Translations under genes and position numbers: made by a program | Assembly (NCBI GenBank): GCA_945903265.1 | Contig: CAMDNQ010000007.1 | Span: 26,111 to 90,110 of the forward strand | DNA length: 64,000 bases | Reading direction: 5' to 3' | DNA from: Candidatus Sulfopaludibacter sp. SbA3 | Lineage (GTDB): Bacteria; Acidobacteriota; Vicinamibacteria; Vicinamibacterales; UBA2999 | The notes under the pieces: model-generated | The model's database searches: none | Seen by the model: only the letters and a program-made list of their open reading frames with translations | What the model was told of the DNA's origin: nothing | In this document: in pieces, positions 36,567 through 50,980 of the stretch | Position numbering within the stretch: the first letter of the stretch is position 1 | Layout of the letters: every line of letters begins with the position of its first letter

Positions 36567-36614
36567 CTCCCGCCCCCCTTAACCCTCAGATTCTGGTAGT
36601 ATTTACGGTCGGTA

Positions 36615-36641
36615 GCCCGTGCACGTCGACGGGCTTTTTTT
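36615..36641 (+). terminator. intrinsic terminator 47 nt upstream of the metK start codon
   Basis: GCCCGT-gcacgtcg-ACGGGC stem-loop followed by T7 (36635-36641). Confidence 0.7.
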
Positions 36642-36687
36642 GTGCCTGCACGTCCCGGCCGAGGCGGCCGCGCTTCAAAGGAGCATC

Positions 36688-37824
36688 ATGTCGCGTTTCA
36701 TCTTCACGTCTGAATCGGTGTCGGAAGGACACCCTGACAAGGTCTGCGATTACATCTCGGACTCGGTTCTCGATGCCTGCCTCGAGCAGGACCCCACGAG
36801 CCGCGTTGCGTGCGAGACCTTGTGCAAGAGCGACACGGTGGTGCTCGCCGGCGAGATCACGACCAAGGCCAAGCTCGATTTCGACAAGATCGTGCGGCAG
36901 GCGGTCAAGGAGATCGGCTACACCGACAAGACGGAGAAGTTCTGCGATACGACGCTGAAGCTGATCCCGATCATCACGCAGCAGTCGCCGCAGATTTCGC
37001 AGGGTGTGACCGCGTCGACGAGCCAGAGCGGCGATCAGGGCGCGGGTGACCAGGGCATCATGTTCGGCTACGCGACCGATGAATCCGCGGAGATGATGCC
37101 GCTGCCGATCCTGCTCGCCCACAAGCTGATGATTGGCCTCACCGAGGATCGCAAATCAGGCAAGGTCAGCTTCCTGCGCCCCGACAACAAGTCGCAGGTG
37201 TCGGTGGCCTACGAGGGAAACGACCCGAAGGCGGTCACCGCCGTCGTCGTCTCCACGCAGCACACGCCGGACGCCGACCAGAAGCGCATCACGCAGTACG
37301 TGCGCGAGGATCTCGGTCCGCGCATGCTCGGCCAGTGGTGGAACAAGGAGCTGTCGCTCTACGTGAATCCGACCGGTGACTTCAGCCACGGAGGGCCGGC
37401 GGCTGACGCCGGCGTCACAGGACGCAAGATCATCGTCGACACGTACGGCGGCTGGGGCCGCCACGGCGGCGGCGCGTTCAGCGGCAAGGACCCGTCAAAG
37501 GTCGATCGCAGCAGCGCGTACTTCTGCCGCTATGTGGCCAAGCAGGTCGTGGCGTCAGGGTTTGCGAAGAAGGCTGAAATTCAGGTCGGCTACGCGATCG
37601 GGATGGCGAAGCCGGTGTCAGTCAAGGTCGAAACGTTCGGCACGGGAGACGAGCGCGCCGCGGAGGAGTTCGTGATGAATGCCTTCGACTTCCGCCCGCG
37701 GGCGATCATCGAGCGGCTCAACCTGCTGCGCCCGATCTACCGGACCACGACCAATTACGGGCACTTCGGCCGGCCGGGGCTGCCGTGGGAAGCGGTCGAG
37801 AAGACCGCCGCGGTCGCCCGATAA
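36688..37824 (+). CDS. metK: S-adenosylmethionine synthetase
   Basis: MSRFIFTSESVSEGHPDKVCD, GAGDQGIMFGYA and GGGAFSGKDPSKVDRSAAY signature motifs. AAAGGAG Shine-Dalgarno. The track start at 36619 was rejected. Confidence 0.97.
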   Translation: MSRFIFTSESVSEGHPDKVCDYISDSVLDACLEQDPTSRVACETLCKSDTVVLAGEITTKAKLDFDKIVRQAVKEIGYTDKTEKFCDTTLKLIPIITQQSPQISQGVTASTSQSGDQGAGDQGIMFGYATDESAEMMPLPILLAHKLMIGLTEDRKSGKVSFLRPDNKSQVSVAYEGNDPKAVTAVVVSTQHTPDADQKRITQYVREDLGPRMLGQWWNKELSLYVNPTGDFSHGGPAADAGVTGRKIIVDTYGGWGRHGGGAFSGKDPSKVDRSSAYFCRYVAKQVVASGFAKKAEIQVGYAIGMAKPVSVKVETFGTGDERAAEEFVMNAFDFRPRAIIERLNLLRPIYRTTTNYGHFGRPGLPWEAVEKTAAVAR

Positions 37825-41441: not shown

Positions 41442-42086
41442 TTATCGCTGCAGCGTCGCGAGGTGCACCTTCGCGACCGTGTGCATGTAACCCCCAGCGG
41501 CGGCAAACCGGCTGTCTGCAGCCGCCGTGATGTGCTCGAGGGCACGCGCCCGCTCTCCACGCGCTTCGGCAAACAACCCGAGATACAAGTGAGCGTAGAA
41601 CTGCGCGGAGGGCTCTGTTCCGGCCGACCGCAGCACGTCGGCCGGCGTCGCCCGGCCGCGAAACAGGTCGTACACCTGGCGCATCGGGACGCGCGCGTCC
41701 GGACCGACTGGAAGGAGCGCCGCCGTCGCGGCCGCGGGCGATTCGGCGCGCGCCACACACAGAAAATGCCATGTCGCGTTTTCGACGTCGTTCGGATTGA
41801 CGGTGCGGTGCAGCTCGAACTGCTTCCGGCAGTCGTCATACCGCCCGGCGTAATACAGGGCGATCCCGCGCTGCCAGAGCTCCGGAGCGATTTCGGGCCT
41901 GATCTTCACCAGCCGGTCGAACTCTTCGGCCGACTGGACGACGCGACCGGCTTCGAAGTGCGCGACCGCGCGCTGGTACACCTCCTGCGGCTGCTGCGCG
42001 TGTACCGGCGCACAAAGCAGACAGGCGACGGTCAGCGCCGCGATGGCCAGCGTCCTCAGCGTTCCTGTTCTATCAGCGCAGATCAA
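41442..42086 (-). CDS. secreted TPR-like (NlpI-like) repeat protein
   Basis: Signal-like LAIAALTVACLLCAPVHAQ. Helical repeats (YQRAVAHFEAGRVVQSAEEFDRLV, GIALYYAGRYDDCRKQFE). TTG start. Weak assignment. Confidence 0.45.
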   Translation of the reverse strand: MICADRTGTLRTLAIAALTVACLLCAPVHAQQPQEVYQRAVAHFEAGRVVQSAEEFDRLVKIRPEIAPELWQRGIALYYAGRYDDCRKQFELHRTVNPNDVENATWHFLCVARAESPAAATAALLPVGPDARVPMRQVYDLFRGRATPADVLRSAGTEPSAQFYAHLYLGLFAEARGERARALEHITAAADSRFAAAGGYMHTVAKVHLATLQR

Positions 42087-43299
42087 GAGCCACCAGCGTG
42101 TTCTCGTTGCGGACGAAGAGGTACCCGTCGGACAGCGCCGGATTCGCGCGTACGGTCGCCGGCAGGATCTGCGCGCGCGCCAGCGGCCGGAAGCGATCGG
42201 GCGACGCGGCCGCGAGAATGAGCTCGCCCGTTTCCTTCAGGATCACCAGCCGATTGGCCGCTGCGAGTACGGAGCCGGCGCGAAACTGGTCCTCGCTCCA
42301 GCGCACCGCGCCCGTGCGGAGATCGACAGCCCGGAAACTCGGATTGAACTCCTGCCGCCCGTGATAGCCGTAGAGATGGCCGTCGACGTGGACGCTCGTC
42401 GCGTAATGGTTCGACAGCGCGTCATCCGACGCCCACAGTTCCGTCAGCGTCCCGCCCTGAAGCCGCAGCACTCCCGCGCCTGGCCCGTACTGCGCCGACA
42501 CGAAAATCAAATCCCCGATGACGAGCGGCGTGGCGGCATTGACGGAGGAGGCCATGCGCGCGCGCCATGGGCGCTGAAACTCAATGGTGCCGGTGGCGGG
42601 GTCCAGGCCAAGCAGGCCCGCGCGCGTGAGAAACAGCGCAAACCGCCGGCCCGCGATCGTCGCGCCGGCTGCCGACGAGTAGCTCGCCTGATCGTTGGTC
42701 GCCGTCCAGAGAACCTTGCCGGTTTTCGCATCGAAGGCCACGACGCCGGCGCCCGGCCCGCCGATGTTGGCCAGGACGCGCCCGTCCTCGACGAGCGGCG
42801 ATCCCGCGGCGCCGAAAAATCCCTTCGGGACCTTGAAACGCCGCATCGTGTCCTCGCTCCAGAGCCGCGTCCCTTTCGCCAGGTCGAGCGCGTGGAGCTG
42901 CCCCTCGGCGCCGAACGTGTACACGGTGCCATTGGTGACGACAGGGACGGCGCGCGGACCCTCGTCGAAGCCGAAGTCATCGCGGTAGCCGGTCGCGTAG
43001 GCGTACCGCCACTGCGGGACGCCGGTGCGCGCATCAAGCGCCTCGACGACCTCCTCGTTGCCGACGCGGTGGAAGAGAATGACGCGCCCCTGTGCGACGA
43101 CCGGACCGCTGAAGCCCTGTCCGACCGACTTGCGCCACACAACTCGTGGGCCCTGCGCGCCCCAGCTGTCGGCGAGCGCCGGCCCGCTGTAGACGCCATT
43201 CCGCTCGGGGCCGAGGTGCTGTGGCCAGTCCTGGGCAGCCGCCCCCACGCCAGCGGCGAACACGATGGCGGCCGATATGTACGGGAGCAGGCGGCGCAT
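42073..43299 (-). CDS. PQQ-like (BamB-like) beta-propeller repeat protein
   Basis: Signal peptide MRRLLPYISAAIVFAAGVGAAAQDWPQ. Repeated motifs of the form G.v....dG.l.ALD..TG...W. ATG 43299 is preferred over TTG 43311. Confidence 0.75.
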   Translation of the reverse strand: MRRLLPYISAAIVFAAGVGAAAQDWPQHLGPERNGVYSGPALADSWGAQGPRVVWRKSVGQGFSGPVVAQGRVILFHRVGNEEVVEALDARTGVPQWRYAYATGYRDDFGFDEGPRAVPVVTNGTVYTFGAEGQLHALDLAKGTRLWSEDTMRRFKVPKGFFGAAGSPLVEDGRVLANIGGPGAGVVAFDAKTGKVLWTATNDQASYSSAAGATIAGRRFALFLTRAGLLGLDPATGTIEFQRPWRARMASSVNAATPLVIGDLIFVSAQYGPGAGVLRLQGGTLTELWASDDALSNHYATSVHVDGHLYGYHGRQEFNPSFRAVDLRTGAVRWSEDQFRAGSVLAAANRLVILKETGELILAAASPDRFRPLARAQILPATVRANPALSDGYLFVRNENTLVALDLR

Positions 43300-43407
43300 G
43301 GGGGGAGGCAATGCCGGTGTATGTTACGCCCGCCCGGGTCGCCCGCGGTTCCTCCGGCGGCACATCCTTGCGTGCGAGCCGGAAACTTTGATAGCCTGCA
43401 GACTCTG

Positions 43408-43485
43408 ATGTTCACCACCCTGCGCCACGCGCATCATCACCATCACGGCCACGCTGGCCGGTGGGGAGGACTGCGCACGCTGTAG
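43408..43485 (+). CDS. candidate his-operon leader peptide MFTTLRHAHHHHHGHAGRWGGLRTL
   Basis: 25 codons, 7 of them His, with five consecutive (cat cat cac cat cac at 43432-43446). Lies 34 nt upstream of an intrinsic terminator and 108 nt upstream of hisI. No Shine-Dalgarno seen. Confidence 0.6.
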   Translation: MFTTLRHAHHHHHGHAGRWGGLRTL

Positions 43486-43518
43486 GACGCTTCGAGCTAC
43501 ACAGGTAAACGCAGACGA

Positions 43519-43549
43519 GCCCCGCCGGAATTGAGTGGCGGGGTTTTTT
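43519..43549 (+). terminator. his attenuator terminator
   Basis: CCCCGCC (43520-43526) pairs with GGCGGGG (43537-43543) across a 10-nt loop, followed by T6 (43544-43549). The left arm can alternatively pair with CCGGUGGGG at 43458-43466. Confidence 0.72.
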
Positions 43550-43592
43550 ACGTACAGCGACTGTGAACCGGAAACGCGGAACTTGGAACGAT

Positions 43593-43919
43593 ATGGATTT
43601 CTCCAAACTTGACGGATTGATTCCCGCGGTGGTGCAGGACCACGTCAGCGGCGAGGTGTTGATGGTCGGCTTCATGAACCAGGAAGCCTGGGACATCACG
43701 CGGAAGACCGGCTACGTCACCTTCTTCAGCAGGACGCGGAACACCCTGTGGACCAAGGGCGAGACGTCGGGCAACCGTCTCGCGGTCCGCGACGTCCTCA
43801 TCGACTGCGACGACGACACGGTGCTCGTGAAGGCGGAGCGCCAGGGAGACGGCAACGTCTGCCACACGGGTGAGCGCACCTGCTTCTTTCAGCGCGCGGA
43901 GGGCGTGACGATTCCATGA
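43593..43919 (+). CDS. hisI: phosphoribosyl-AMP cyclohydrolase (monofunctional)
   Basis: [41 protein letters not shown] and [10 protein letters not shown]. Confidence 0.9.
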
Positions 43920-44803
43920 AGCTCAAACTCGGTATCCCGAAGGGTTCGCTGCAGGACGCCACGATCCAGCTGTTCGCGCGCGCCGGCTTCAACCTCTACG
44001 TCAACTCGCGCTCGTACTTCCCGACGATCGACGATCCGGACATCGAGTGCATGCTGATCCGTGCGCAGGAAATGGCGCGCTACGTCTGCGACGGCGTGCT
44101 CGACGCCGGCCTGACCGGCCAGGACTGGATCGCCGAACACAAGCTGGGAGGCGAGACGAAACACCAGCTCACCAGCATCACGGATCTGATCTACGCGAAA
44201 CAGAGCTTCGGCAAGGTCCGCTGGGTGCTCGCCGCGCCAGAGGATTCGCGGTTCAAGACGCCGGCGGATTTCGCCGGGGCGACCATCGCCACCGAGCTTG
44301 TGCGCGTGACGAAAGCCTATTTCGAGAGGCTGAAGGTCCCCGTCGAAGTCGAATTCTCCTGGGGCGCCACCGAGGTCAAGCCCCCCGTGCTCGCCGACGG
44401 CATCGTCGAAGTCACCGAAACCGGCTCGAGCCTGCGCGCCAACAGGCTGCGGATTCTCGATACGGTCATGGAGTCGAACACGCAGCTGATTGCGAACGAC
44501 GCGGCGCTGGCCGACCCCTGGAAGAAGACGAAAATCGAGAACATCGCCTTGCTCCTTCGTGCGGCCATCGAAGCGCAGGGGCGGGTCGGAATGATGCTCA
44601 ACGTGAAACGCATCGATCTCGACAAGATTCTTGCGCTCCTTCCCGCGCTGCAGCGCCCCACCATTTCGTCGCTGAGCGATCCGGACTGGGTCGCGGTGAA
44701 CACGATCATCGAAGAGCGGACCGTGCGCGATCTGATTCCCCGGATGAAGGCCGCGGGCGGCCAGGGCATTGTCGAGTACCCACTGAACAAGATCGTTCTA
44801 TGA
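43916..44803 (+). CDS. hisG: ATP phosphoribosyltransferase (long form)
   Basis: [13 protein letters not shown]...RSYF...[16 protein letters not shown]. 295 aa including the C-terminal regulatory domain. ATGA overlap with hisI. Confidence 0.9.
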
Positions 44804-46035
44804 AGATCGTCGACTCCTCGAATCGCCGCGCCGTGCGCGCCCTCCTGTCACCGGAGCGCGCGCGCGATGCCGCAACCGACCGTCGGGTGGCGCAGATCGT
44901 CCGCGACGTCCGGCGCGACGGCGACAAGGCGGTGCAGCGGTATGCCCGCCGGTTCGACGGCTTCGAGGGTGCGCTCGAAATCTCGAAAGAGGAGATGCGG
45001 GACGCCGCCGCACAGGTGCCGCGACCCGTACGGGCGGCGCTGCGTGCCGCGGCGCGCAACATTCGGCTCGTTGCTGCGAAGCAGGTCCCTCGAGGCTGGC
45101 GCCTACGCGTCGGCAGCGGCATCACCGTGGAACAGCGTGTGGTCCCGCTGGATCGTGTCGGCTGTTACGTCCCAGGCGGCCGCTATCCCCTTCCCTCCTC
45201 ACTGCTGATGACGGCCATTCCCGCGGCGGCAGCGGGGGTCGCCGAAATCATCGCGGTCTGTCCCCGGCCCGCGCCGGTCGTGCTGGCCGCTGCGCTCGAA
45301 GCCCGTGTCTCGCGCATGTTCCGCGTGGGCGGTGCCCATGCGATTGCGGCGCTTGCCTACGGCACGGAGACCATCCCGCGCGTGGACAAGATCGTCGGTC
45401 CAGGCAATCGGTACGTGGCCGCCGCAAAAGGCCTCGTCGCGGCCGACTGCGGGATCGATTTCTACGCGGGACCCACGGAGATCGTCATCGTGTCGGCCCG
45501 CGGACCCGCTGCGTGGATTGCCGCCGACCTGCTCGCGCAGGCCGAGCACGATCCCGATGCGCGTGCGGTCCTCATCACGCCCAGCCGCACGCTGGCGGAA
45601 CGAGTGGCTCGCGAAGTCGCCGCGATGCTGCCTGACAGCGGTCCTGCAAAGGCGTCCCTGCGAGCCCATGGCGGGATCATCGTCACGTCATCTCTCCGGG
45701 AGGCGATGACGCTTGCGAACGCCTCGGCCCCCGAGCACCTCGTCGTGGACGACGAGACACTTGCGCGGCAGGTGACGTGTGCGGGTTCTGTGTTCGTGGG
45801 ACCGTGGTCGGTGCAGGCGGCCGGCGATTATGCGATTGGATCGAACCACGTGCTGCCGACGGCCGGGGCCGCGCGGGCACGCGGCGGATTGTCCGGAGCT
45901 GACTTTGTCCGCCAGATGACCGTGCAGCGCGTCACACAGGCCGGCCTGCGGCGCATTGGAGACACCGTGATGACACTCGCCTCGGCAGAAGGGCTCCACG
46001 CCCATGCCGCATCGGTGAGCGTCCGGGTGAAGTGA
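44800..46035 (+). CDS. hisD: histidinol dehydrogenase
   Basis: The track ORF 44047-46035 was trimmed to ATG 44800, which overlaps the hisG stop (ATGA). Motifs: [28 protein letters not shown] and [13 protein letters not shown]. Confidence 0.9.
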
Positions 46036-47072
46036 TGGTGATACAGGGCTACCCCGATCCCGGCGACGGCCTCCGCCTGCACCTCAACGAGAACACGGGC
46101 GGCTGCTCGCCTCGCGTGCTGGAGGCCATCCGCCGTGTCAGCCCATCCGACGTGTCGACGTACCCGTCCTATCCGGACGCCGTGCGTGCGACGGCCCGTC
46201 ATTTCGGCGTCGACCCGGACTGGGTGCTGCTGACGAATGGGCTGGATGAGGGGCTGCTGATGACGGCGGTCGGGCACATTGCCAGGCCGCGGGTGCACGA
46301 CGCGGAAACGATCATTCCGCTGCCGGCATTCGATCCCTATCCGAATGCCACAGCAGCCGTGGGCGCCACGGCGGTCCGCGTGCCTCCGGGGCCGGAGTTC
46401 GCCTTCCCGACACAGGCCGTCATCGACGCGATCACGCCGCGTACGAGGATTGTGTTCCTCAATACGCCGAACAATCCGACCGGCCAGTTGATCCCCGTCC
46501 CCGATCTCGTGCGCATCAGCCAGGCGGCTCCCGGCGCGGTCGTCCTGATCGACGAGGCGTACATCGAGTTCGGGGGCACGACGTTCCTTCCGGAGCTGCC
46601 GCGTTTCCCGAACGTGCTCGTCGGGCGGACGTTTTCAAAGGCGTACGGCCTGGCCGGACTGCGCGTGGGCGTCGTGATCGGCCAGCCGCAGGCGCTGGAC
46701 CCGGTTCGCGCGGTGACGCTGCCGTTCAACATCAACGGCGTCGCGCTGGCGGCGATCGAGGCCGCGCTTTCCGACACGGAGTTCCTACCGCGCTATGCGG
46801 CGCAGGTGCGCGCGTCACGCGACAAGCTGTACGACGCATGCCGGCGGTTGGGGCTGCCGTTCTGGCCGAGCGCGGCCAACTACGTCCTGGTGCGCGTGGG
46901 CGAAGCGAAGCCGTTCGTCGACGCTCTGGCGGCGCGGAAGATTCACGTGCGCGACCGATCGAAGGATCCGGTGACAGCCGGGTGCATCCGGATCACAGCC
47001 GGAATCATGGAACACACTGACGCCGCCATCGAGGCGCTCGAAGACGTGATGGCCACGAGGCAGGGGCGATGA
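46032..47072 (+). CDS. hisC: histidinol-phosphate aminotransferase
   Basis: [17 protein letters not shown] and [15 protein letters not shown] (PLP lysine). The start is GTG 46032 or ATG 46035; both overlap the hisD stop. Confidence 0.9.
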
Positions 47073-47695
47073 CAAAGAAAGTACGTGGGGCGGGTTCCGC
47101 GAAGCGGACCCGCCGAGCAACGATCAACCGCCAGACAACCGAGACGCAGATTCGGGGCAAGCTCGTCATCGACGGCAAGGGAAAGTACGACATCCGCACC
47201 GGCATCCGCTTCTTCGACCACATGCTCGAGCTGTTCACGCGGCACGGCGGATTCGACCTGACGCTCCGCGCGACGGGAGATCTCGACGTCGATCAGCACC
47301 ACACGGTCGAGGACGTCGGGATTGCGCTCGGGGAGGCAACGCTGAGAGCGCTCGGCGACCGCAAGGGCATCAACCGCGCGGGCTACTTCGTCATGCCGAT
47401 GGACGAAACGCTCGGTGTCGCCGCCATCGATCTCAGCGGCCGGCCGCATGCCGTCGTCGATCTGAAGCTGAAAGTTGAACGGGTTGGCGATCTGCAGAGC
47501 GAGCTGATCGCGGACTTCTTCGACGGGTTCGCCTCCGCCGCGCGGGCGAACGTCCATGTCGTCGTGCTGTACGGCCGCTCGAGCCACCACCACGTCGAAG
47601 CGGTGTTCAAGGCGTTTGCACGCGCGCTGCGGGTTGCCTGCGCGCGCGACGCGCGGATGGCGAAGATGCTGCCGAGCACGAAGGGCCTGCTGTGA
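47069..47695 (+). CDS. hisB: imidazoleglycerol-phosphate dehydratase
   Basis: [35 protein letters not shown] and [17 protein letters not shown]. Confidence 0.92.
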
Positions 47696-48294
47696 TTGCG
47701 CTGATCGACTATGGCGCCGGCAATCTCACGTCGGTAAAGAAGGCGCTGCACGCGCTCGGCGCCGAGTTCACCGTGCCCGCGTCGCCTGATGAGTGCGCGG
47801 ACGCGGCAGGCCTGATCGTGCCCGGCGTGGGTCATTTTTCGGCGACGACCGCGCTCGGCCAACCGTGGCGCGACGCAATCTCTGGTGCGGTGGCTGCGGG
47901 CACTCCCCTGCTCGGCATCTGCGTCGGCATGCAGTGGCTGTATGCGGGCAGCGAGGAGGCGCCGGACGTCCCGGGCCTCGGTCTTCTCGAAGGCCAGTGC
48001 CGGCTGCTTCGCGGCAACGCCGAACAGCGCCTGAAGATTCCTCACGTCGGGTGGAACGCGCTCGACGTCTCGGGAGCCTGCCGCCTGCTGGCCGGAGTCT
48101 CAGGCGGCTCGCACGTGTACTTCACCCATTCATTCGCAGCGCCTGTCACGGACGCGTGTGTCGCATCGACGACGCACGGGGAGTCGTTCGCTGCGGCGGT
48201 CGAGCGCGACAACGTGTTCGGTGTTCAGTTCCACCCCGAAAAGTCCGGCGATGCGGGCCTGCGCATCCTGCGGAATTTCCTCGAGCTGTGCTGA
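47692..48294 (+). CDS. hisH: imidazole glycerol phosphate synthase, glutaminase subunit
   Basis: [21 protein letters not shown] (catalytic Cys) and [10 protein letters not shown]. Confidence 0.92.
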
Positions 48295-49055
48295 CCAAAC
48301 GCATCATCGCGTGCATGGACGTGCGCGACGGCCAGGTGGTCAAGGGCGTCCAGTTCCAGCAGCTGCGGCATGCAGGCGACCCCGCGGAGCTGGCGCGCCG
48401 CTATAACGTCGAGGGCATCGACGAAATCGTCGTTCTCGACGTCACGGCTACGCTTGAAACCCGCCGCGCCCTCCGCAACACCATCAGCGCGGTGGCGAAG
48501 GAGATCTTCCTGCCGTTGACTGTTGGAGGCGGCATCCGTGCTGAAGACGATGCGGCGGCGGCTGTCGATGCGGGCGCCGACAAGGTCAGCCTCAACACCG
48601 CGGCGTTGAGCAACCCGGGCCTGATTACGACGCTCGCGAACCGGTACGGCAGCCAGGCGGTGATCGTGGCCATCGATGCGAAGCGCCGCGGCGGCACCTC
48701 AGATAGCGGGTTTGGCGTGTTCGTCCGCAGCGGGACCGCAGACGCTGCACGCGATGCTGTTGAATGGGCGCGCGAAGCCGAGTCGCGTGGCGCCGGTGAA
48801 ATCCTGCTGACGTCGATGGATCGTGACGGCACGCGGGCCGGGTTCGATTGCGACCTGACAGCGGCCGTTTCGGATGCCGTCAATATTCCCGTCATTGCGT
48901 CTGGCGGCGCCGGTGGTCTCGAGCATTTCGCCGACGTCTTTACCCGCGGCCACGCGGATGCCGCGCTGGCGGCTTCTATTTTTCATTACGCCGACACGGG
49001 GGTCGCGGATCTGAAGCGCTACCTCCGCACCCAGGGCATTCCCATTCGTCTCTGA
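48288..49055 (+). CDS. hisF: imidazole glycerol phosphate synthase, cyclase subunit
   Basis: [31 protein letters not shown] and [10 protein letters not shown] 48288 overlaps the hisH end by 7 nt. The track start at 47793 was rejected. Confidence 0.9.
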
Positions 49056-49774
49056 TGCTGATTCCATCGATCGATCTTCAGGGCGGGCGCATCGTACAGC
49101 TCGTCCAGGGCGAAAAGCTCGCCATCGAAGCCGCTGACCCCGAGCCGTGGATCGCGCGCTTCTCCCGTTTCCCCCGCGTGCAGCTCATAGACCTGGACGC
49201 GGCCAAGGGTCAGGGCGACAACGCCGCCATGGTGGCGGCCATCTGCGGACGTCTGCCCTGTCGCGTGGGCGGCGGGATTCGCAGCATCGAGCGCGCCCAG
49301 GCGGTGCTCGGCGCCGGCGCCCACGCGGTGATCGTCAGCTCGGCACTGTTCCGCGACGGCAAGGTCGACCTGCCGTTCGCACAGTCGCTCGCGGACGCCA
49401 TCGGGCCCGACCGGATCATCGCGGCGGTCGACAGCCGCGGCGGCCAGGTCGCGATTCACGGCTGGCGGACCATGCTTCCGATCACCGCTGTCGACGCCGT
49501 GCGCGCCCTCGAGCCCTATTGCGCCGAGTTCCTGTATACCCACGTCGACACTGAAGGGCTGATGGGAGGCACCGACATGAACGCCATTCTCGCGGTCCGC
49601 CGTGCGACGACTCGCCGTGTCACGGCAGCCGGCGGCATTACGACCGCCGCCGACATCCACCGGCTCGACCGGGACGGCGTGGACGCGGTGGTCGGCATGG
49701 CCATCTACTCTGGGCAGCTCGCCATCGACGATCTGGCACCGCCAGAGCCCGGAACCCGGAACCTTCGGAACTAG
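49055..49774 (+). CDS. hisA: ProFAR isomerase (HisA)
   Basis: [30 protein letters not shown] and AAGGITT. The ATG overlaps the hisF TGA by 1 nt. The last 11 codons lie in a GGAAC-rich repeat. Confidence 0.85.
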   Translation: MLIPSIDLQGGRIVQLVQGEKLAIEAADPEPWIARFSRFPRVQLIDLDAAKGQGDNAAMVAAICGRLPCRVGGGIRSIERAQAVLGAGAHAVIVSSALFRDGKVDLPFAQSLADAIGPDRIIAAVDSRGGQVAIHGWRTMLPITAVDAVRALEPYCAEFLYTHVDTEGLMGGTDMNAILAVRRATTRRVTAAGGITTAADIHRLDRDGVDAVVGMAIYSGQLAIDDLAPPEPGTRNLRN

Positions 49775-49793
49775 GAACCTGCCGTTAGGCGTG

Positions 49794-49832
49794 TTACGTT
49801 AAACGCCGTAACGGCTACGGCATTTAACGTAA
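49794..49832. promoter_or_regulatory. AT-rich 10-bp perfect inverted repeat TTACGTTAAA-N19-TTTAACGTAA overlapping the ATPase start codon
   Basis: Arms at 49794-49803 and 49823-49832. The spacer holds the GCCGTAACGGC palindrome. The CGTAA/TTACG motif recurs about 5 times in 49782-49832. Confidence 0.45.
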
Positions 49833-50980
49833 TGGCCTCGGCAAACCCCTTCATCTACGGCGAGATCGTCCCGGACGACTCGTTCGCCGACCGCGAGGTC
49901 GAGCTGGACCGCCTGACGGCCGACCTCCGGGCCGGGCAGAAAATCTTTCTCATCTCGCCACGCCGGTACGGCAAGTCGTCGCTCGTCCGGCGCGCCCTCA
50001 GCACACTCGCCCGCCAGGGCGCCCTGACCGTCGACCTGACCGTCAGCAGCTACAGCTCGTACGTCTCGTTTCTCGAGGGATACGCGCGGGCGCTGGCGAC
50101 CGTGGAGACGAAGTGGCAGCGCGCGCGCGAGTGGCTGGGCGACGTGATTACGACGACCCGGCCGGAGCTGCGCTACGAGGCCGATGCGGCATCGGGACGC
50201 CTGGCGGTCGCGTTTCCACTCGTGCGGACGGAGCGCGACGTCACGCGGCTCGCCAACGAAATCTTTGCGCTGCCCGGGCGCCTCAGTACCGAGCGGAAGC
50301 GCCCTGTCATCGTGTCACTCGACGAATTCCAGGCGATCGACGCCTTCAACGGCGGGAGCGTCGAGCACGCGCTCCGCGCGGCCGCGCAGCAGCAGCGGCA
50401 GGTCGGGTACGTCTTCGCCGGGTCGGAGCCGAGCCTGATGGAAAAGATGATCGGTCCCAAGCGTCCGTTCTACAAAGCGGGACCGGTCATGCGCCTGGAG
50501 AAGATTCCCGCCGACATCTTCGCGGACTTCATCGAGAACCGGTTCGGGCGAACGGGCATCCGCGCCGAGCCGGGCCTGGGCGCCGCGATCGTCGACCTCG
50601 CCGGCAATCTTCCATACGACGTCCAGCGTCTCGCTCACGAAACCTGGGACGATATCCGCGCGGCCGGCATGAAGAAGGCGGGGCTCGACCAGCTGCACGC
50701 GACGCTCGGGAGGCTCCTCGCCGAACAGGACACGATGTTCGAAGCGGTCTGGCAACGGCTCACACTCGCGCAGCGCGCCGTCCTTCGCGCGGTCGTGCTC
50801 CAGAGCGGCCGCGAACTGCTGTCGGCGGAGACGCGCAACCGCCATCGCCTCGGAGGCCCGTCGAGCATTCAGGCCTCCCTGTCCGCACTCATGAAGCAGG
50901 ATCTGCTCCTCAAGGAAGGCCCGCAGTACGTGGTGATCGATTCCCTGCTCCGCGAATGGATCGCGCGGAAAACGTTCTAG
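49832..50980 (+). CDS. AAA-type ATPase (Arch_ATPase/PF01637-like) with C-terminal helical domain
   Basis: Walker A ISPRRYGKSSL and Walker B PVIVSLDEFQ. Family assignment by overall pattern only. Confidence 0.6.
   Translation: MASANPFIYGEIVPDDSFADREVELDRLTADLRAGQKIFLISPRRYGKSSLVRRALSTLARQGALTVDLTVSSYSSYVSFLEGYARALATVETKWQRAREWLGDVITTTRPELRYEADAASGRLAVAFPLVRTERDVTRLANEIFALPGRLSTERKRPVIVSLDEFQAIDAFNGGSVEHALRAAAQQQRQVGYVFAGSEPSLMEKMIGPKRPFYKAGPVMRLEKIPADIFADFIENRFGRTGIRAEPGLGAAIVDLAGNLPYDVQRLAHETWDDIRAAGMKKAGLDQLHATLGRLLAEQDTMFEAVWQRLTLAQRAVLRAVVLQSGRELLSAETRNRHRLGGPSSIQASLSALMKQDLLLKEGPQYVVIDSLLREWIARKTF

Follow-up and report, generated by a model that had tools for sequence, protein, structure and literature searches.

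A histidine-codon leader with the architecture of a transcription attenuator precedes the his operon of Vicinamibacterales

The histidine biosynthesis operon hisIGDCBHFA lies within a 64-kb stretch of contig CAMDNQ010000007.1 from Candidatus Sulfopaludibacter sp. SbA3 (hereafter the window, meaning the whole stretch analysed), whose lineage is Vicinamibacterales, in the phylum Acidobacteriota. Upstream of hisI we found a short open reading frame (ORF) rich in His codons, followed by RNA segments that can pair in alternative ways. Judging from its sequence, this element is very probably a ribosome-mediated leader-peptide transcription attenuator that makes expression of the operon depend on how much charged tRNA-His is available. 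We observed directly the sequence elements, how they are conserved among relatives, the alternative pairings and the covariation within them.

The coding part of the element comprises two features:

43408–43485, plus strand: leader ORF of 25 codons, encoding MFTTLRHAHHHHHGHAGRWGGLRTL followed by a stop, without a Shine-Dalgarno (SD) sequence; read directly, with a homologous mini-ORF in 80 of 80 relatives.
43426–43452, plus strand: cluster of seven putative regulatory His codons (CAY), the sole His run of at least four in the window.

The leader ORF opens with the ATG at 43408 and closes with the TAG at 43483–43485. Its His codons lie at 43426–28, 43432–46 (five consecutive) and 43450–52; an earlier first-pass annotation of this DNA had likewise read seven of them, with five in a row at 43432–46. 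Translated in six frames, the window contains no other His run of four or more, and about 0.0025 runs of five or more would be expected in it by chance. As is typical of attenuators, the operon hisIGDCBHFA is thus preceded by a short ORF with many codons for the cognate amino acid (7 His in 25 codons).

Four pairing features overlap or follow the His codons:

43429–43477, plus strand: hairpin 1:2 (candidate anti-antiterminator or pause hairpin), His codons paired with G-rich region 2; from folding and covariation.
43458–43475, plus strand: region 2, 5′ strand of the antiterminator, CCGGUGGGG plus CUGCG; from the minimum-energy fold of 43457–43529.
43510–43528, plus strand: region 3, CGCAG plus CCCCGCCGG, both 3′ strand of the antiterminator and 5′ arm of the terminator; from pairing and conservation.
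43517–43549, plus strand: intrinsic terminator 3:4 (core stem 43520–26 / 43537–43, T6 at 43544–49); from folding and conservation.

The terminator stands between the leader ORF and the first structural gene, 34 nucleotides (nt) 3′ of the former. CCCCGCC (43520–26) pairs with GGCGGGG (43537–43) and six T residues follow; folded alone, the hairpin reaches −20.0 kcal/mol (z = −4.7). The antiterminator joins CCGGUGGGG (43458–66) to CCCCGCCGG (43520–28) over 9 base pairs, is extended by CUGCG (43471–75) pairing with CGCAG (43510–14), and excludes the terminator by occupying its 5′ arm. It is the minimum-energy fold of 43457–43529, at −33.5 kcal/mol (z = −3.0). Both the terminator at 43520–43549 and the 9-bp pairing had been proposed in the first-pass annotation by reading alone, and both persist on folding. 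A third pairing had gone unnoticed there: the His codons pair with region 2 in a hairpin of −25.3 kcal/mol (z = −2.35), with a GGCC/GGCC apex and a GCGCA/UGCGC base. This hairpin completes a 1:2 / 2:3 / 3:4 architecture and puts the regulatory codons into a segment able to compete with the antiterminator. Left free, the window leader has hairpin 1:2 plus the terminator as its minimum-energy fold. When all parts are present and region 1 is masked, the terminator state (−34.7 kcal/mol) is approximately iso-energetic with the antiterminator state in the window, which would suit a kinetic switch decided by the order of co-transcriptional folding.

To place the element among relatives, a HisI protein scan taking one genome per GTDB species yielded 80 loci (L001–L080), all from metagenome-assembled genomes labelled Vicinamibacterales, Vicinamibacteria or Acidobacteriota, bar a few evidently mislabelled; their HisI proteins are 80–96% identical to that of the window. 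Alignment A1 contains 79 leaders, those of the window and of 78 loci; L030, which has the terminator and is truncated upstream, was excluded. A broader HisI protein search gave at least 120 matches, those listed all at least 85% identical, and was uninformative on breadth beyond the order. Genomes titled “uncultured Bifidobacteriaceae” or “Acidimicrobiia” (L023, L049, L050, L054, L064, L074 and L078) encode HisI 83–89% identical to the window's and share the Vicinamibacterales type of leader and terminator; their labels or contig binning look wrong.

A His-rich mini-ORF with 4–9 His precedes hisI in 80 of the 80 Vicinamibacterales species loci. The first-pass annotation had made its case depend on such conservation, and had supposed a lineage outside the Proteobacteria; the relatives bear out the former, compensatory changes included, and the assignment to Acidobacteriota bears out the latter. 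Leaders are 23–31 codons long, with His codons partly interspersed; the aligned block holds 5–9 of them (mean 6.7 over 79 sequences), and the weakest leader, L049, has 4 His. Typical peptides read M..LHHAHHHHHGH.GRPAGLRA or end in ...AVRQDCAR, and the most divergent clade encodes FALHHVHHVHHHAAFGPAGLHV. Every upstream-complete locus has an in-frame ATG or GTG 4–9 codons ahead of the His block. A pattern search for the terminator (CCCCGCCGG-loop-GGCGGGG-T4–8) found it in 78 of 80 loci; in L049 the stem is the same and the T-run is interrupted. The end of the terminator lies just 4–20 nt before the hisI ATG in some species.

The alternative folds recur across the alignment. With regions 1 and 4 omitted, the antiterminator is the minimum-energy fold in 79 of 79 leaders, and 6–9 of the 9 nt of the terminator left arm pair with region 2 in each of them; among free leaders, the terminator plus hairpin 1:2 is the minimum-energy fold in 75 of 79. 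At a mean of −23.3 kcal/mol, the 2:3 duplex is far stronger than the pairing of background 25-mers drawn from those loci (−12.6 kcal/mol), and of about 1000 such 25-mers compared for the window, not one equals region 2 in its pairing with region 3. Every leader has its in-frame stop shortly past region 2, 2–25 nt (median 19) beyond the core of that region, so a terminating ribosome would overlap region 2. Once hairpin 1:2 is included, the element is laid out like the trp attenuator, which largely removes an earlier doubt about the geometry of ribosome occlusion; the part of that doubt that stands is that the overlap in the window is partial.

RNAalifold run on the 79-sequence alignment returned the terminator only, as is expected when alternative helices compete. 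Helices 1:2 and 2:3 were tested apart, with named structures plus folding of each sequence. For helix 1:2, 88% of cells were paired (17–52% in slid controls), 8 of 12 pairs change on both sides, and none of 500 shuffles matched the observed score. In the clade L069–L080, for example, CACGCGCA/UGCGCGCG is replaced by CACGUGCA/UGCACGUG, with U-G intermediates in other species, and pair 32:95 changes there from C-G to U-A. For the antiterminator, 81.5% of cells were paired (16–48% when slid), and pairs 91:170 (8 species) and 82:181 (2 species) change from C-G to U-A. This column-based count understates the support for the antiterminator, as window-type leaders have a register shifted by 4 columns that is matched by a 4–5 nt insertion on the region 3 side, a correspondence judged by eye and unquantified. 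The terminator core CCCCGCC is invariant except in L074 (C-G to G-C), with G-U pairs in L007 and L008; such near-invariance fits a region 3 that is doubly constrained. We consider both alternative helices, 1:2 and 2:3, to be supported by these compensatory changes in the aligned sequences.

The same alignment separates constraint on codons from constraint on RNA. Within the His block, distances between anchor columns are 12, 15, 18 or 21 nt and 9, 12 or 15 nt, multiples of three in all 79 sequences of A1. In the His codons the first two positions (C, A) are conserved and the third is C or T about equally often; entropy across the block has a period of three. Right after the last His codon the spacing becomes 11, 13, 14 or 17 nt, and two frames run through the strongly conserved block CCGGCAGGACUGCGCGCG, giving ...GRPAGLRA in 63 species and ...AVRQDCAR in 16; this region 2 block is thus conserved at the level of RNA and not of peptide. 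The spacer from CCGGCAGGACUGCGCGCG to the terminator (54–75 nt) has no preference for multiples of three. As judged from the alignment, the His block is under codon-level constraint. The observations that touch on translation of the leader are the conserved in-frame start, the confinement of frame-preserving indels to the His block and the third-position variation, along with the absence of an SD.

A promoter-like element lies immediately upstream:

43368–43397, plus strand: −35 TTGCGT (43368–73), 18-nt spacer and −10 TAGCCT (43392–97); conserved in position.

The pattern TTGCnn-N17/18-TAnnnT occurs at the equivalent place in 75 of 81 sequences, and in 63 of those 75 the leader start follows the −10 by 9–11 nt. 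Transcription usually starts 6 nt after a −10 element, so the conserved spacing predicts a 5′ untranslated region of about 0–4 nt. Pairing of the leader with the anti-SD averages −2.1 kcal/mol, with 3% of loci at or below −6, against a mean of −8.7 for hisG, with 88% at or below −6; in the window, metK also has an SD (AAAGGAG). The lineage thus uses SDs, and it is a conserved trait of the leader to lack one. Together, these data point to leaderless or near-leaderless initiation of the leader ORF, with a transcription start placed by promoter spacing. The missing SD and the nearly leaderless mRNA had been listed as weaknesses in the first-pass annotation; the former proves to be a conserved feature coupled to a promoter 9–11 nt upstream, and the latter is supported by the conserved spacing that places the predicted transcription start. 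A scan with consensus promoter and terminator patterns missed both this terminator and this promoter. We attribute this to a limitation of the patterns, probably because the −35 and −10 are non-consensus and the stem runs into the T-run; folding and conservation support both elements.

Two further observations concern these initiation regions. The 9–11 nt between the −10 and the leader start (43398–43407 and equivalents) are fairly conserved, often as (g/t)CTGaCTyc; this segment could act as a discriminator or as a signal in the initially transcribed region, for instance in stringent control, or could reflect shared ancestry. Stringent control acts at the E. coli his promoter. The SD of hisI is weak at best (anti-SD pairing at −3.6 kcal/mol on average and at −3.5 in the window) and that of hisG is strong (−8.7; GGAGGG in the window).

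That his attenuation logic operates here, as first proposed, agrees with every testable prediction at the level of sequence; from the same elements we infer the transcription start, leader translation, termination at a premature 3′ end and the response to histidine. Transcription would begin at, or a few nt before, the leader start, and a ribosome would load without an SD. With His-tRNA plentiful, the ribosome would pass the seven His codons and reach the stop at 43483, where it would cover the 3′ part of region 2; alternatively, after its release, region 2 would re-pair with the His-codon strand (1:2). Either event would free the left arm of the terminator to pair with the right arm, and RNA polymerase would stop at the T-run (about 43549) before hisI. 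With His-tRNA scarce, the ribosome would stall on the His codons and mask region 1; region 2 (43458–75) would then pair with region 3 (43510–28) once the latter is transcribed, no terminator would form, and transcription would read through into hisI. If the transcript does begin with the start codon, its first ribosome would load as that codon emerges, and coupling of transcription to translation would be built into the geometry of the promoter.

Several points weigh against this interpretation. Because the genomes compared are all closely related (HisI at least 80% identical), part of the conservation reflects shared ancestry, and the cores of terminator and antiterminator are almost invariant, so that covariation there rests on few positions. 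In the window, 17 nt separate the 9-nt core of region 2 from the stop that follows; a ribosome at that stop would cover CUGCG only, and termination would have to rely on 1:2 re-forming. At equilibrium with region 1 masked, most leaders favour the terminator, which makes the model dependent on co-transcriptional kinetics. Finally, the predicted 5′ untranslated region is 0–4 nt, and initiation on such mRNAs might be inefficient in Acidobacteriota.

A leader-peptide attenuator could also act mainly on translation, by masking the hisI start, or through Rho-dependent rather than intrinsic termination. Translational variants of such attenuators are known (PMC9413887), hisI has no clear SD (mean −3.6 versus −8.7 kcal/mol for hisG), and a terminator 4–20 nt before the hisI ATG, as in some species, could occlude initiation. 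However, a GC-rich stem followed directly by T4–T8 is conserved in essentially all species, and in the window and most relatives the 15–145 nt between the hairpin and the hisI start are too great a distance for masking. We therefore regard an output of this kind as very unlikely.

The CAY array and the hairpins might instead form a switch sensed by a protein or a tRNA without translation (TRAP/HutP-like or T-box-like), the mini-ORF being incidental. Its terminator/antiterminator logic would be identical, and a protein reading triplets would also account for conserved triplet repeats and for indels in multiples of three. Yet the repeats are contiguous His codons with a third position free to be C or T, preceded 4–9 codons upstream by an in-frame ATG or GTG fixed 9–11 nt from the conserved −10 and followed by an in-frame stop always just past region 2. 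No T-box or other Rfam family matched at E values up to 10, and the NCBIfam matches of the operon ORFs include no candidate RNA-binding-protein gene linked to the operon. On these grounds a translation-independent switch is highly improbable.

Least probable of all, and scarcely credible, is that the mini-ORF is a functional His-rich small protein, for instance a metal-binding one, with its own terminator and with the hisI promoter located after it: His-rich peptides can bind Ni or Zn, and a conserved promoter with a strong terminator does resemble a self-contained small gene, but the peptide after the His block is unconserved and the same RNA is read in two frames, in several species the 4–20 nt from the T-run to the hisI ATG could not accommodate a promoter, ORF and hisI are linked in 80 of 80 genomes, and the extensive alternative pairing between ORF and terminator would be left unexplained.

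The operon downstream of the candidate attenuator is arranged as follows:

43593–49774, plus strand: hisI-hisG(long form)-hisD-hisC-hisB-hisH-hisF-hisA, each ORF with an NCBIfam match.

It is tightly packed, with neighbouring genes overlapping or abutting. hisI, identified by NCBIfam, starts with the ATG at 43593 and, within 43593–50980, is a stand-alone cyclohydrolase. Among the ORFs examined in 43593–50980 we found neither hisE (phosphoribosyl-ATP pyrophosphatase) nor a histidinol-phosphatase, the remaining window not having been searched for hisE. The gene after hisA (49832–50980) encodes an AAA/ATPase_2-like protein, and a tRNA scan of the whole window found no tRNA. Many public calls for HisI in relatives (proteins P0001–P0120; window gene 43593–43919) are 109–186 residues long, against 108 in the window. 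It appears that gene callers extended the start upstream through the GC-rich attenuator, so that the N-terminus of hisI is mis-annotated and the leader overlooked.

Upstream, the nearest gene (42073–43299, minus strand) is divergent and PQQ_2/BamB-like; given this orientation, the plus-strand terminator is not its own. We rejected as a real gene a plus-strand frame at 42043–43485 (480 codons, in frame with the leader): it has no Pfam or family match, it is antisense to the PQQ_2/BamB-like gene, and most relatives have a short open frame ahead of the leader. It is a high-GC shadow ORF of that gene and could mislead gene callers.

Elsewhere in the window, a clean hairpin followed by T7 (GCCCGUGCACGUCGACGGGC-TTTTTTT) lies at 36615–36641 on the plus strand (region 36600–36690), between an outer-membrane beta-barrel gene ending at about 36507 and metK (ATG at 36688, SD AAAGGAG). 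It matched neither the S-adenosylmethionine riboswitch nor any other Rfam family, and may be the terminator of the upstream gene or an uncharacterised metK leader.

We compared the candidate attenuator with known regulatory RNAs. Rfam models run with cmscan gave 0 matches over the whole window at gathering thresholds, and within 43250–43700, at E values up to 10, just two unrelated chance matches (Sr006 and WT1-AS_4). Membership in the Rfam family His_leader (RF00514) was accordingly rejected, since no match appeared at the gathering score or at E up to 10. A His-specific T-box riboswitch was likewise rejected (no match in the window at gathering or in 43250–43700 at E up to 10), and no other regulatory RNA family matched.

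Leader attenuation of the his operon is the textbook mechanism of the E. coli type. With enterobacterial hisL the element shares a short His-run ORF before the his operon, the predicted sensing of charged tRNA-His, and a proposed choice of antiterminator or intrinsic terminator that is set by ribosome stalling. The hisL leader of E. coli is 16 codons long and its 7 His are consecutive, whereas the leaders described here have 23–31 codons with 4–9 partly interspersed His. They also differ in having a simple, trp-like three-helix layout, an SD-less leader with its promoter 9–11 nt from the start codon, hisI and not hisG as the first structural gene, and another host phylum, Acidobacteriota; no homology of sequence or structure was detected, as judged by the lack of an RF00514 match.

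The mechanism itself is not new; what we describe is a clear candidate example conserved in at least 80 Vicinamibacterales species. The first-pass annotation had put classical attenuation outside the Proteobacteria as a question. It is no novelty there: for his operons it has been predicted in Firmicutes (PMC9413887, PMC2965389), and it has been reported or predicted in Actinobacteria and Deinococcus (PMC4833913, PMC4007540). A literature search, which was not exhaustive, turned up no leader-peptide attenuator, for His or otherwise, described in Acidobacteria. The element represents an apparently independently evolved sequence family in a new phylum, with hisI first and an SD-less, promoter-adjacent leader. 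We put forward more tentatively, as a possibility falling a little short of an even chance, that this is an independently evolved, order-wide His attenuator, the first leader-peptide attenuator given a function in Acidobacteriota, with SD-less initiation from the very 5′ end of the transcript. If this is true, classical attenuation, and hence tight coupling of RNA polymerase to the ribosome, operates in a poorly studied soil phylum. The element would add a further apparently independent origin of His-codon attenuation to those in Gammaproteobacteria and several Firmicutes lineages, which fits the view of the mechanism as easily reinvented. Alignment A1 could seed a new RNA family model, and the SD-less, promoter-adjacent start would offer a handle on leaderless initiation and on transcription–translation coupling in Acidobacteriota.

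The closest structural parallel is the E. coli trp attenuator, in the 1:2, 2:3, 3:4 model of Yanofsky (1981) as summarised in PMC4007540. The two share the order of four segments, with the regulatory codons in segment 1 and the stop just after segment 2, and the same roles for the helices, 1:2 as pause hairpin or anti-antiterminator, 2:3 as antiterminator and 3:4 as terminator. They differ in amino acid, in their unrelated sequences and in the number of regulatory codons (many here, two in trp), and the present leader is apparently leaderless or nearly so.

Among His leaders, attenuators of his operons have been predicted in the Bacillus cereus group, Peptostreptococcaceae and Erysipelotrichales (PMC9413887), and of hisZ/hisS in bacilli (PMC2965389). 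Like the element described here, they are independently evolved and non-proteobacterial, combine a His-codon peptide with a terminator and an antiterminator, have no RF00514 match and have comparative genomics as their sole basis. Phylum and sequence differ; the Firmicutes leaders are reported to have 3–5 consecutive His codons, and the text consulted reports no promoter-adjacent SD-less start for them. His leader peptides of Actinobacteria are the subject of a conference paper cited in PMC4833913.

Precedents for the proposed mode of initiation come from Deinococcus deserti, with 14 putative leader peptides at mRNA 5′ ends (PMC4007540), from the leaderless trpL of the alphaproteobacterium Sinorhizobium meliloti (PMC7298713), and from the poly-Cys leaderless upstream ORFs of mycobacteria (bioRxiv 10.1101/834739). 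Amino acid and lineage differ, and the start here is placed by promoter spacing, predicting a 5′ untranslated region of 0–4 nt, whereas in those systems a 5′-AUG is demonstrated. What the Vicinamibacterales leader would share with them is an SD-less mini-ORF at, or about 1 nt from, the 5′ end of the transcript, and control of downstream amino-acid genes by the supply of the cognate amino acid.

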